In this document: positions 5,874 to 19,336 of the stretch, piece after piece | How the letters are laid out: every line of letters starts with the position of its first letter | How positions within the stretch are numbered: the stretch's first letter is position 1 | From: Mustelus asterias | Taxonomy: Eukaryota | DNA length: 64,000 nt | Assembly (NCBI RefSeq): GCF_964213995.1 | Contig: NC_135830.1 | Span: 12,338,001-12,402,000 of the forward strand | Direction: 5' to 3' | Notes under the pieces: generated by a model | The model's database searches: none | What the model saw: only the letters and a program-made list of their open reading frames with translations | What the model was told of the DNA's origin: nothing | Translations under genes and position numbers: made by a program

Positions 5874-6329
5874 ATTTTCTCCAAACGCTGTTTACTAATA
5901 TTGTTGGCTTTGTTGCCCGCTGAGTCTGTGTTGAATAGTCATTGTCTGTTCCCAGCGTTCATTACCAGAAATTGAATAGATTCTGTAATATGTTGCAGGA
6001 ACGAATGACAAAGATGAGATGTTCCAAGGTCCCCCCGAATTAACGATACAGGAAAGACGGACCATAACACTGGGCTGCAGTTACTCGACGGCTGATGTTC
6101 GAACTCTGCTCTGGTACAACCAGCCTCGCGGGGAAGATCCGACATATTGATTGACGATATATAGCGCAGTGTGAAGATTCTCCGGATAGATTTTCTGCTG
6201 TTTTGCACAAGAAAACATAAAATGGTTCCCTCAAATATCGCCGGAACACTTCTCTCTGACAGCACTGTGTCTTTCTGTGCCATGGAGCCCACACTACTGC
6301 GGAGGTTCAGAGAATCCCGTAGAAAAACC
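5874..6329 (+). pseudogene. TCR alpha/delta-type V segment pseudogene (V1) with degenerate RSS
   Basis: Leader ATG>ATT (5874) and donor GT>CT (5920) relative to paralog V7. V exon from 5999 reads GTNDKDEMFQGPPELTIQERRTITLGCSYSTADVRTLLWYNQPRGEDPTY* (stop 6148), then frameshifts, ending LSDSTVSFCAM. Heptamer cacacta 6290-6296, 24-nt spacer, nonamer agaaaaacc 6321-6329. Confidence 0.85.
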
Positions 6330-9339: not shown

Positions 9340-9885
9340 CATAGAAACATAGAAGCTAGAAGCAGGAGGAGACCATTCGGCCCTTCGAGCCTGCTCCGCC
9401 ATTCATTTTGATCATGGCCGATCATCGAATTGAATACCCTGATCCCGCTCCCTCACATATCCCTTGATACCTTCAGCCGCAACAGCTATGTCTAATTTAT
9501 TCTAGAAATCAGACAACGTTTTGACCTCAACTACATTCGGTGGCAGTGAATTCCACGCGTTCACCATCTGGTGAAGAAATATCTTCTCACCTCAGTTCTA
9601 AAAGATTTACCCCTCATCCTCAAACTATGACTTCTAGTTCTGGACTCTCCCGCCATTGGAAACATTCTTTCTGTATCTGCCCTGTCTAACTCTTTTAGAA
9701 TTTTATAAGTTTCTATGAGATCCCTTCTCACTCTTCTAAACTCCAGTGAATATATTCCTAACCGTCTGTGTCACTCCACAGATGACAGACCTACTATCCC
9801 AGGAATCAGCCTGGTAAACCTTCGCTGCACTCCCTCTATAAGCAAGGACATCAGTCCTCAGATAAGGAAACCAAAACTGCACACA
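9340..9885 (-). mobile_element. CR1 LINE 3' fragment
   Basis: 3' UTR motif ccattcggcccttcgagcctgctccgccattc with a catagaa tail. Similar to 11865-12290. Confidence 0.8.
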
Positions 9886-9907
9886 ATCCGTCACACATAT
9901 CCGCATT

Positions 9908-10010
9908 CCGACGTCATAATACTAGATACTCTGACGTCACAATGTCGGATACTCTGGTCTCACAGTGCCTGGATGTACTGATGTCACACTGCCGGGTGTA
10001 CTGACGTCAC
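9908..10010. promoter_or_regulatory. Tandem ~23-bp repeats each carrying a CRE-like TGACGTCA, upstream of V2
   Basis: Units start at 9908, 9931, 9954, 9978 and 10001. Perfect TGACGTCA in the 9931 and 10001 units. Confidence 0.6.
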
Positions 10011-10223: not shown

Positions 10224-10756
10224 ATGAAGTTGAGCTTCAATTTAGTGATCATTTCCCTGGATTTCATACTCTTCCCTCAGTGTAAGTGTGGTCACTGTTT
10301 CTGACAGGAATATTTCACACACCAGATATATTGTGTTAAATTATACTCTGCTTTACTGTATTGTTTTCATTGTGTATACAATGGTACTTTATTGTGATAC
10401 ATTATAATGCGCTATTTTATTGCTGCATATGCACATTAACTTCCCAGGTGCTGCTGGCGGTGAAGAGGTATCGCAGTCTCCGGAGTTCGTGGTGGTTACC
10501 GAGGGAGCCACTGCAACATTCACATGTTCCACAACAGTTCCACAGATCCTATACTGATACAGACAATACGAGGACAGAATCGTGCAGCACCTGGTGAGCG
10601 TTACCAGGGATCCGGACAGGATCACGGCTCGGTACATTTTCTAAGAGAAACGCAGCACTCTGAAAGTTAGCGATACTCGAGTGACAGGTGCTGCCACCTA
10701 CATCTGTGCAGTGCAGGCACAGTGTTGTAAAGATCAATACGAGTCGTACAAACACC
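10224..10756 (+). pseudogene. TCR alpha/delta-type V segment pseudogene (V2) with 23-RSS
   Basis: Leader MKLSFNLVIISLDFILFPQ 10224-10281 with gtaagt donor. V exon from 10448 reads EEVSQSPEFVVVTEGATATFTCSTTVPQILY*YRQ...IF*EKRSTLKVSDTRVTGAATYICAVQ. RSS: cacagtg 10718-10724, 23 nt, acaaacacc 10748-10756. Confidence 0.92.
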
Positions 10757-11401: not shown

Positions 11402-12390
11402 GGTTTTTGTGCAGGGTTTTAGCTGTAATCTAACGCTGTGCCTCACAGCACAGCAATAGACCGCTCGGTCCTCTCCACTGAGGCCGCTTATAACTAGACT
11501 TTGTAGACTCGTCAGCAGCCGCCAGATATCGCCCTGAGATCGCATCTTTCTTCAGTGCTACTACATTACTAATTATCCATCTTGGAGGCTCTGCCGGTTT
11601 CTGTCGATACCACTGCATGGTGTCTATAGCCTGGTCTGTATATTTGCAATCCAGCTTCGCCGAACCCCCTTCCGACAGAGTTACCGACACGGGGACTGAT
11701 TTACCGCACATAGCCCGCCTGTTAAAGTAAATGAAAAATAAGATCGCGATGAAAGAGGATCGATCTATCTGTATAAGTGTGCGCGAATTTCCATTTTCCA
11801 ACCTGCCCCTCTAAATATATACCTGATCTTTATCCATTTTAAATCGAAACAGAAAAACGTTGAAACGAGAAGCAGGAGTAGGCCAGTCGGCCCTTCGAGC
11901 CTGCTCCGCCATTCATTTTGGTCATTACTGATTATTGAGTTCAATATCCTGGTTCCCCATTCCCCAATATCTCTTAATTCCTTTAGCTCCAAGAGCTATA
12001 TCTAATTTCTTCTTGAAATCAGACAACATTTTGGCCTCAGCTACATTCTGTGGTAGTGAATTCCACACATTCTCCACGCTCTGTGTGGAAAGATTTCTCC
12101 TCACCTTTGTTCAAAATGGTTTACCCCTTATCTTCAAATTATGACGGCTAGTTTTGGACTCCCCCATCATTGGGGGCATTCTTTCTGAATCTATCCTGTC
12201 TAACCCTGTTAGAATTTTATGAGATTCTATGAGATCCCCTTCACTCTTCTAAACTCCAGTGAATATAACCCTGACCGATTTAGTCTCCAAAAATCATAGC
12301 ACAATCTATTTTATCAATCTGCTAAACTGTTTGAACGAACATAATTCATCACTTACTGTCCCAGAGCATCACCAGTATGATCAGAAACAT
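11402..12390 (-). pseudogene. TCR alpha/delta-type V segment pseudogene (V3) with 23-RSS
   Basis: Leader MFLIILVMLWD 12390-12357 with gtaagt. V exon from 11718 reads AVNQSP/SVTLSEGGSAKLDCKYTDQAIDTMQWYRQKPAEPPRWII.../AVYCCAVR with two frameshifts. RSS: cacagcg (11440-11434), 23 nt, acaaaaacc (11410-11402). Confidence 0.92.
11865..12290 (-). mobile_element. CR1 3' fragment inside the V3 leader intron
   Basis: Same 3' UTR motifs as 9340-9885. Confidence 0.8.
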
Positions 12391-14718: not shown

Positions 14719-15410
14719 CCACAGTAAGTATTTCAGTTGGTGCTCAGCAGAGGGCGCTCTCACGCCGTTAGACAGTAACAATAAAGTTAAAATCGCCACA
14801 GCCGCAAAGGCTGGAGGCAATTTAACCTGAGGATCACACCACATCTCAGGAGAGCGGTCAAGGTTGAGGTGGCGGCGACTTCATGAATGAACACACCGTG
14901 TACAGGTATTGAACCTATGCTGTCAGTGCTGCTTTGCGTCACAAGCCAGATATCCAGCAACTGAGCTGAACGGCAACATTCTCATCACTTACTCTACCTA
15001 TATGCGAGCATTTGTCATTCACGCACTAGGAAACGCAGATTCCTCTGAATCTAAGACCTCTTCAATCTCTCACCATTTACTTCATAAGTTTCTTTGTGTT
15101 TCTTCTTGTCAAAATGCATCACATCACATTCGCAATTTTGACTTTCTTCCTCTTCTCTTCGCATTGTTTCCCAATTTTCTGTGCTCTGTACGTATTGTTA
15201 CTGCACTTTTTTGCCTTGTCCTTCACTCATTCTGATTTGAATGTAATCTCTTCTATTTTCTTCGGATACATTTCCAACCCTTCATTTTAATCTTTTTTAA
15301 ATTTTCTGATTCAAGAAATGTTTTTCTCTCTTTCGCCTTACCATTGGAATTTAATATCGCGCTTCTTGAAACGCTGTTATTCCCGCGGAGCGGTTTTTGA
15401 AAACGGTGCA

Positions 15411-15775
15411 AGTTTTGGTACGGGACCTCCCTGTGTTTATTACACTGTGCCTCATGGTGCAGAAATAGGTGGCAGTGTCTGAAACCTGTACGTCTCTCAC
15501 AGTCAGGATGCTGAGTTTGTTGCCTTCTCCGATCGAAGTAGTGATCCTCCCGTGTTGATCGGTTCCTCTTGTGGCCATCACTGGGGCGACTGATTCGGGA
15601 GCTGTTTATACCAACGCACGATGTCAAACGGAATGGAAATAGTGCAGTTCATGGATATATTCCTCGCTCCACTGATAACCATCCGTGGAGGGAGCTGCAG
15701 CAACTCAGCTTCTCCGGTCACCCCCGTGCAGATCAGAGTGAAAAACAACAAAACGTCGATGCAAATCCTGACCAT
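15411..15775 (-). pseudogene. TCR alpha/delta-type V segment (V5): leader fused to V without an intron, frameshifted, intact 23-RSS
   Basis: MVRICIDVLLFFTLICTGVTGEAELLQLPPRMVISGARNISMNCTISIPFDIVRWYKQLPNQSPQ, frameshift near 15580, then MATRGTDQHGRITTSIGEGNKLSILTVRDVQVSDTATYFCTMR. RSS: cacagtg (15449-15443), 23 nt, accaaaact (15419-15411). Confidence 0.9.
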
Positions 15776-16394
15776 TCTCAGTTCACACACAACACCGAGA
15801 TCAGCTTTGAACCAGGCGATGAACATTAACCCGGAGCCAAGTATTTTCTTCGGGTTCAGTTCAGTGCCGTGTTTATGTTGAAGTTACAACATTAGGTGGG
15901 TTCTACTTTAGCCACTCATACTGAGCGTTTCACACTGACACAGGCCTACACAGCCTCTGAGTACACACCTGACACGCCCAGATTAAATATTTCTCACGCG
16001 ACACACTGCTCTCTACTGGTGAATACTGGTAATTGCAGGGTGCAATTCTTCACTTGGATCTTCGACAAGTTGCAGTTCACAAGATAGTTATGAATGAGAA
16101 CAGCTGTTTCCTCCTTCTTGTTATAGCTCTTTTATTGCGGGAGAGCTTACAACGTTCCTTCTGTTCTACGATCCAACGATTGCAGTGCATTTTGCTCTCT
16201 CGTTCTTTCTGAAGTCTCATTCCACATTGTGACCAGTCCCGGTGTGTTAGTCCTAAAATATCGTTCGATAATTTGGGAACTTGTGCAATGGGAACTGGTC
16301 TATCCATCGAATATTTGTTACATAACTACAGGAGTAGAAACCTTGACAACTCATAAGAATATTTCAAAAAATAATAAGTTTGTTATCAGTGATA

Positions 16395-18407: not shown

Positions 18408-19336
18408 ATGTCTCCTGTGACTCTGAGCTTATTCTTCACCGCTGCAGCTCTATTAACCGGCAGGTTCACAAGTTACAAACTCTGTGTTTTACGTATTTAC
18501 CATTCACTGCATTCAATTGCGCAGTTCGATTAACACACTGGTAAAATATATATTAATTCTAATATCAATTAGAATCCACTTTGTCTCACCAAGGGAGGAG
18601 GCAAAATACTTCAGCTGAATGAGAGCGAAGAGTTAAAGTGGGATTGCAGGCCCCACTGTAGCCGGTGAGGGACTTTGACAAACTCGATAAACTGGATAAA
18701 AGCTTTGACAAACCCGAGATCTATAAACCCACGGACAGTTTAGTTTCCCCTTCAAATAACGTAAAGCGAAGGCGAGGATCTGATCTCCTTCGAAGGTGTT
18801 CATTTAACGGAGTGTCATTTAACCGCTGCAAACACGATCCCGTTACAACCTGCGTGTTGCGGGAAATATGTTTCTGTTTAGATCCTTTGATTCATTTTTC
18901 AGATTATTGGCCAGGGTGACGGGCCGAATCCGGCCATTAGACGAAGTGAACTCACGTCGTTTAATTTAGCATTACTCTTGTCTCTTACAGGACAATGTGG
19001 AGGAGATTCAATTTCACAGATGCCGGCTGCAGTCACAGAGAGTAAAGGAGATGATGTTCAGTTATTCTGTAATTATACAACTGCAAGCATTGACAATTAT
19101 TACCTATTCTGGTACCGTCAGTGTCCCAGCGGATCCATGGAGTATCTACTGATGAGAAGCAAATATACTGGGAACACAGAGAGATTCCCAGGGGACCGTT
19201 TATCAGCGGAGCTCAATGATACAACCCGCACCATTCAGCTGAAAATGTCTAAAACAGAGCTGGCAGACGCCGGTGTGTATTACTGCGCATTGAGACCCAC
19301 AGAGGCACAGAGCTGGGCTGAACCTGTACAAAAACT
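18408..19336 (+). CDS. TCR alpha/delta-type V gene segment (V6), open V exon with 23-RSS; potentially functional
   Basis: Leader MSPVTLSLFFTAAALLT 18408-18459. Phase-1 intron 18460-18990 begins GCAGGT and ends ttacag. V exon GQCGGDSISQMPAAVTESKGDDVQLFCNYTTASIDNYYLFWYRQCPSGSMEYLLMR...ELADAGVYYCALRP has the conserved Cys/Trp/Cys. RSS: cacagag 19298-19304, 23 nt, acaaaaact 19328-19336. Confidence 0.88.

Follow-up and report, generated by a model that had tools for sequence, protein, structure and literature searches.

A leader split by an intron is taken to be characteristic of antigen-receptor V genes. The locus studied here raises the question of whether leader and V can share one exon in a V segment that still carries its recombination signal and, if so, of how the leader intron was lost. 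The window, a 64,000-nt stretch of shark DNA (C71:12,338,001-12,402,000 in a 3.68-Gb assembly), contains seven V segments by HMM search, one of which, on the minus strand at 15775-15411, is a TCR alpha/delta V with leader and V in one exon. From an ATG at 15775, 65 intron-free codons cover leader, FR1, CDR1 and FR2, the 21-codon leader being continuous with FR1, and a 23-RSS follows at 15449-15411, in agreement with the original prediction of a fused leader and V beside an unrearranged RSS. The predicted perfect heptamer (CACAGTG, 15449-15443) and 23-nt spacer are both present, whereas the nonamer (15419-15411), listed with them, has two mismatches to the consensus, so that only the heptamer of this RSS is perfect.

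The window copy is a dead member of its family, a pseudogene. A frameshift had been placed near 15580, and compared with the intact copy L005 there are indeed 7 nt missing between 15582 and 15581, followed by a TGA at 15580-15578, which leaves the copy without the open reading frame of a functional V gene; besides this deletion the two copies show 17 differences over 501 nt. No AG is present at the canonical acceptor position and no leader exon was found within the 2.5 kb searched upstream. As originally described, there is no poly(A) run, although the 3′ flank is A-rich: the 400 nt past the nonamer have an A fraction of 0.36-0.50 per 100 nt (window 99th percentile, 0.41), and the first 260 nt of this flank match family loci only. 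The check for target-site duplications that had been suggested for the unit turned up direct repeats that are short two-copy matches, none of them a convincing target-site duplication.

An acceptor at the position of L-PART2 and an upstream phase-1 leader exon are present in all six other V segments of the window, as had been stated, one of the leader exons being decayed (near 5919, with start and donor broken). Split-leader exons lie at 10224, 14047, 18408 and 24378, with a further donor at 12356, and the V at 10224-10756 on the plus strand was assigned by sequence to the sister family discussed below. The leader exon at 18408-18459, which belongs to the plus-strand V at 18999, has a GC donor where its paralogue L154 has GT. 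In the minus-strand V at 11696, the leader intron (11717-12356) is about 640 nt long and apparently contains a repeat insertion.

Table 1. Features of the single-exon V copy, its flanks and related V segments
Feature	Position	Strand	Remark
L-PART1 equivalent (ATG and 52-nt stretch, fused to V exon)	15724..15775	minus	putative, by junction-anchored remote homology to sister exon 1
L-PART2 equivalent, 11 nt	15713..15723	minus	no AG acceptor before it
TCR alpha/delta V region, FR1 to CDR3 start; pseudogene	15450..15712	minus	Cys1 codon 15646-15644
7-nt deletion between 15582 and 15581, with premature TGA at 15580-15578	15578..15582	minus	relative to intact L005
Unrearranged 23-RSS	15411..15449	minus	perfect heptamer, 23-nt spacer, nonamer with two mismatches
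5′ flank, about 140-170 nt common to subfamilies A and B	15776..15940	minus	no TGACGTCA element
A-rich 3′ flank common to family members	15011..15410	minus	no poly(A) run
Split-leader sister-family pseudogene	10224..10756	plus	exon 1 10224-10281, intron 10282-10447, V exon 10448-10717, 23-RSS 10718-10756
Subfamily C chimera	L087:1760-2215 (C436:199759-200209); also C591, C124, C900, C88, C108		AT-rich junction

A leader without a splice acceptor

The comparison of splice signals covered 83 distinct V contexts with a full frame, taken from the loci retrieved, with family membership called by an FR1 protein motif; frameshifted copies, the window copy included, and V genes within 700 nt of the locus start were omitted. 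An AG at -79/-78 from Cys1 was found in none of the 39 family sequences but in 36 of the 44 other V sequences, and the eight exceptions among the latter comprise six with acceptors at -74 or -71 and two with broken ones. The family sequences start with an ATG at -129 from Cys1 (36 of 39), with an ATG at -135 (two) or with GTG (one), and none of 36 leaders contains a stop. The leader is thus not the read-through end of an intron, and the family has the features of a single-exon leader V family of the chicken TRAV1 type, namely one frame, no acceptor and many members. The dN/dS ratio of the leader between subfamilies was 0.44-0.63, against about 2 or higher for CDR1 (the pairs being non-independent), and within subfamilies it was 1.45-1.52, calculated from few sites.

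The idea that the 'leader' is the 3′ end of an intron read in frame, with the real leader exon farther upstream, is prompted by several split V genes of this locus whose intron ends translate into hydrophobic stretches with an in-frame ATG, and by subfamily C of the family, which does have an upstream exon and intron. It is nevertheless most improbable, given that, besides the absence of the acceptor from all 39 sequences, the ATG is fixed across subfamilies and species, the stretch is closer to exon 1 than to the intron end of the sister genes (six of six distinct sisters), and the upstream exon of subfamily C has no ATG and a frame that stops before the family ATG. A search of the genome with a leader-end plus splice-donor pattern gave seven exact matches, none a V leader by inspection, and 114 matches with one mismatch. 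The original prediction had named a real leader exon splicing into this one as the observation that would speak against it; no such coding exon was found, the only upstream exon detected in the family being the non-coding one of subfamily C.

In the six loci of subfamily C, the single-exon V is immediately preceded by the 5′ portion of a gene of another V family, comprising its promoter, leader exon, intron and the beginning of FR1, and this upstream part is 73-74% identical to L163-L168. In the aligned copies the old leader has no ATG, two copies also being frameshifted in it, and the old frame ends just 5′ of the new ATG. The old leader exon would thus serve as a 5′ UTR.

Size and setting of the single-exon family

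The window copy belongs to a single-exon family of about 70 loci in the assembly, most with open frames and some likely redundant, which bears out the suggestion that it might define an intronless V family. A DNA search found at least 30 loci at 85-100% identity over the whole unit (40 of 107 candidates scored), and a protein search found 27 stop-free loci matching at 82-100% over the length from the leader to the end of V. With the homologous ORF P0004 as query, 67 of 73 matches at E<=1e-30 ran in one frame from leader residue 1-3, and two of the remaining six, on inspection, proved to be frameshifted single-exon copies. Eighteen family loci lie on C71, the contig of the window.

The family has been multiplied both in blocks and in tandem. 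An array of 12 single-exon V copies with a period of about 2.46 kb occupies C71:19,363,811-19,397,248. It lies some 1 Mb past the J-alpha cluster, on the opposite strand, and the differences between its copies cluster in CDR1. The window copy has two identical twins (501 nt) in blocks that are 99.9% alike over at least 20 kb, which reflect either recent segmental duplication or assembly redundancy, and it also lies within a 5-kb, three-gene block with 90.6% identity to C119. Window positions 4179-24878 are 99.9% identical to C71:11.115-11.135 Mb and to C111:862-882 kb. The view that the window copy is itself a retrocopy is ruled out by its duplication inside multi-gene DNA blocks, together with the absence of a convincing target-site duplication.

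Three identical 501-nt copies and many loci on short contigs make it likely that the copy number is inflated, and since the short-contig copies may be redundant haplotypes, the true family count is uncertain. These same features might be taken to mean that the family is an assembly artefact or a somatic contamination. The chance of this is close to nil, however, because the copies diverge down to about 57% protein identity, 18 loci are on C71 alone, and P0004, a contiguous ORF in another organism, is 76% identical to the best of the shark's own copies (residues 1-129). At L154 (C143, near 821,400-823,460), an intact family copy, about 2 kb is inserted 72 nt 5′ of the ATG. On another large contig, L084:2035-2193 (C14:97,891,534-97,891,692) is an orphan 3′ half of a family V, 75% identical and lacking the leader end, with a heptamer-like site but no nonamer and with two repeat copies flanking it.

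Several lines of evidence identify the family as TCR alpha/delta V. The segments have a 3′ RSS with a 23-nt spacer, and a J-alpha-type cluster of more than 25 J segments with 12-RSS is on the same contig at 18.37-18.41 Mb, about 6 Mb from the window. The intact kin P0001 and P0002 match the Pfam V-set domain (PF07686) at 34-37 bits (cut-off 26) and retain Cys1, the Trp and the Y-x-C motif, and the PDB matches of intact kin are mostly TCR alpha chains. C71 also carries many C1-set exons; repeated units of light-chain V with 12-RSS are present on another contig. C71 combines V segments of both orientations, spread over megabases, with a J-alpha cluster and these C1-set exons, and in this it matches the elasmobranch antigen-receptor complex, in which TCR alpha/delta lies with IgH clusters, as described in PMC12227049. 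A second J-alpha cluster, at C546:137,500-154,800, is similar but not identical to that of C71 and is either a haplotype or a duplicate.

Origin of the single-exon leader

In a tree of 78 rows, the 35 single-exon rows form one clade (support 99/91), which is sister to a split-leader family of eight rows (joint support 99/98). We consider it probable that this large single-exon TCR alpha/delta V family goes back to one frame-keeping loss of the leader intron in an elasmobranch ancestor, likely templated by cDNA, followed by duplication at the DNA level. The starting point would have been the split-leader sister family in the elasmobranch ancestor; the intron would have been lost once and in frame, likely on the template of a cDNA of the sister's spliced transcript; and the family would afterwards have spread through DNA duplication. 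An RNA template by whichever route is slightly favoured overall; conversion of the gene in place by cDNA, taken by itself, falls somewhat short of even chances.

Between the two families, V-exon identity is 58-64%. In junction-anchored comparisons with three family representatives, six distinct sister exon 1s ranked first to sixth of 28 leader exons (scores 16.5-29.3, against 14.7 for the best other leader exon), and a MAFFT alignment of spliced sister and family sequences is nearly gap-free from the ATG into FR1. The ATG-to-Cys1 length of the spliced sister, 135 nt, equals that of subfamily C (135 nt), but the position of the ATG varies (43, 44 or 45 codons), which makes the length argument soft. 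In unanchored alignments, other families ranked ahead of the sister. In a longer anchored test, only subfamily B was clearly above controls (24-40 against 11-14), with subfamilies A and C at 12-18 against 10-15 and one shuffle reaching 45.5. In these comparisons the homology of the leader to that of the sister family comes out as weak. No remnant of the intron was found in the family, and no family member scored above 0 bits with an nhmmer profile built from the sister's flank and exon 1. The GDSVTR family was also considered as leader donor (z 5.5 for the leader alone) and was rejected, since the similarity did not extend into its flank (z 1.1; anchored score 7.2).

The junction is exact to within about 3 nt, models with no net change and with a net loss of 3 nt being inseparable at the present divergence. 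The original proposal was a precise loss mediated by cDNA or a retrocopy; base precision and RNA mediation go beyond what the junction itself gives, the exact-splice model lying outside the best 14 of 37 models in a junction scan. The best model in that scan kept 9 nt of the intron end, which favours a reading with the same family history in which the intron went at the DNA level, through a microhomology-mediated deletion that left an in-frame leader one codon shorter. A deletion of this kind is possible, and we rate it on a par with conversion in place. In five of six distinct sister junctions a repeat of 6-7 nt occurs both where exon 1 ends and where the intron ends, and its deletion keeps the frame (net -3 nt), whereas in the 26 other split-leader junctions such a repeat is never longer than 5 nt (the spurious row L061 set aside); the deletion product puts a G before L-PART2, as is found in 36 of 39 family sequences, while sister exon 1 ends in T; and transcription in germ cells is not needed. 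Intron loss of this type has been proposed for worms and flies (as described in PMC3698931). Against it, exact splicing scores slightly higher across the junction (24.7 against 23.1; better in 53 of 90 pairs, worse in 15 and tied in 22, the pairs being non-independent), the mid-leader register and the length of subfamily C fit zero net change, and the repeat is seen in present-day sister genes and may postdate the event.

The flanks speak to a different route, in which the founding gene arose when a sterile V transcript, spliced but not rearranged, was retrocopied into the TCR field, where it acquired new promoters. Short tandem TGACGTCA arrays of one to five copies are present in eight of nine sister promoters and absent from the family, and since conversion in place would keep the array, its absence counts against conversion in place and fits a retrocopy. 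The similarity of subfamily B to the sister ends about 110-160 nt 5′ of the ATG, a clear 5′ flank signal being seen in B only; sequence farther upstream is unrelated between subfamilies, subfamily C using the 5′ half of another V gene; and the 3′ flank is A-rich (0.46 A at +100-200 nt, against 0.29 in sisters and 0.26 in others). The absence of the CRE array, the end of the 5′ similarity and the A-rich flank point weakly to a retrocopy. However, there is neither a poly(A) run nor a target-site duplication, the A-rich tract extends over about 300 nt and is of mixed composition, a random insertion would seldom land among TCR V genes, and with V exons only about 60% identical to the sister's, loss of flank similarity by drift is expected anyway. 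So long after the event, neither of these two marks is to be expected. All considered, a retrocopied founder is unlikely, and any mechanism other than cDNA conversion, retrocopy or microhomology-mediated deletion is much less likely still. Sister promoters with such CRE-like arrays lie at about 9870-9970 of the window and in the upstream regions of L073-L078.

In a fuller scenario, which we put forward only tentatively, shark germ cells reverse-transcribed the spliced transcript of an unrearranged TCR V, and the copy was reinserted in the TCR locus, where it may have founded a V-alpha/delta family that ranks among the larger ones and consists of processed V genes that bear an RSS, move between promoters and still rearrange, one branch capturing another V promoter whose leader exon became 5′ UTR.

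Exceptions to the split leader and use of the family

The original prediction took split leaders as the rule for Ig and TCR V genes, and the rule holds with a published exception: chicken TRAV1 (V-alpha 1; 45 of 48 members) and most TRGV1 genes have single-exon leaders, according to PMC10972964, where this structure is called unique to chicken V-alpha 1. The chicken genes, as described there, resemble the shark family as multi-member TCR V families in which a single exon holds leader and V, and differ in belonging to a bird instead of an elasmobranch, the comparison being one of descriptions. Because the shark loss maps inside a shark clade with an intron-keeping sister, it is likely independent of the chicken case. 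The V-mu-j segments of marsupial TCR-mu, TRMVj in the opossum, also have no leader intron, for which retrotransposition or germline deletion has been proposed (as described in PMC2275272 and PMC6170632). According to these descriptions, however, TRMVj has D and J pre-joined to it and is unable to rearrange, whereas the shark family has dozens of members and keeps its 23-RSS; a processed V of that type, joined to (D)J with the RSS gone, is thus not what the window copy represents, its RSS being intact.

Nurse shark NS4 light-chain genes are described in PMC2193156 with a split leader, and nothing further on single-exon leaders was found in PMC12698447 and PMC5278385. Our literature search found no report of a shark V with a single-exon leader, although Parra and Miller (2012), Deiss (2019), Ott (2021) and Criscitiello (2010) may describe it. 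The family represents a second exception to the split leader, likely independent and old, in cartilaginous fish. Given that it has expanded and not decayed, the leader intron is dispensable, and the presence of an intron-bearing sister in the same locus, unlike the chicken case as PMC10972964 describes it, makes the mechanism of intron loss testable. In practice, V-gene finders that demand an AG acceptor would miss or misannotate dozens of shark V genes.

Relatives in other species suggest a considerable age. A homologue search gave no hit with a single protein as query and four with an alignment. Three Chiloscyllium punctatum gene models with homologous leaders (seen as proteins) and the JGI ORF P0004 nest in the single-exon clade (99/99), and two Callorhinchus milii proteins fall outside it, beside the sister family but without resolution. 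In P0004 one frame runs through leader, V and RSS into the 3′ flank, and together with its identity to the best own copy this makes it likely that P0004 is a single-exon gene from another species. Scans of metagenomes yielded no family member, one of them giving the unrelated V L169. Taken with the nurse shark relatives described next, the bamboo shark models and P0004 make it likely that both lineages predate the split from orectolobiform sharks.

The family is large, old and likely functional, with many intact copies likely still in use. Intact members would be expected to rearrange to J-alpha and to yield an ordinary signal peptide with no splicing of the leader. Contigs from four sequencing runs of one study contained no joint, and no listed piece bridged the junction by the 31-letter rule; this was not counted as evidence. 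Likely use in TCR alpha chains is suggested by nurse shark TCR-alpha clones labelled aV9.1 in PMC5931798, of which 19 rows give the mature V only, with junction nucleotides; the word 'intron' is absent from the main text of that paper. By eye, seven of the 19 have the FR1, FR2 and FR3 motifs and the CDR2 length of the family, and row 402, translated by hand, is identical to L066 at 57 of 87 residues. Row 403 resembles the sister family. The aV9.1 label in that source (supplementary file 3, rows 385-403) is mixed, the other 11 rows being of other V types and at least four unrelated types being present.
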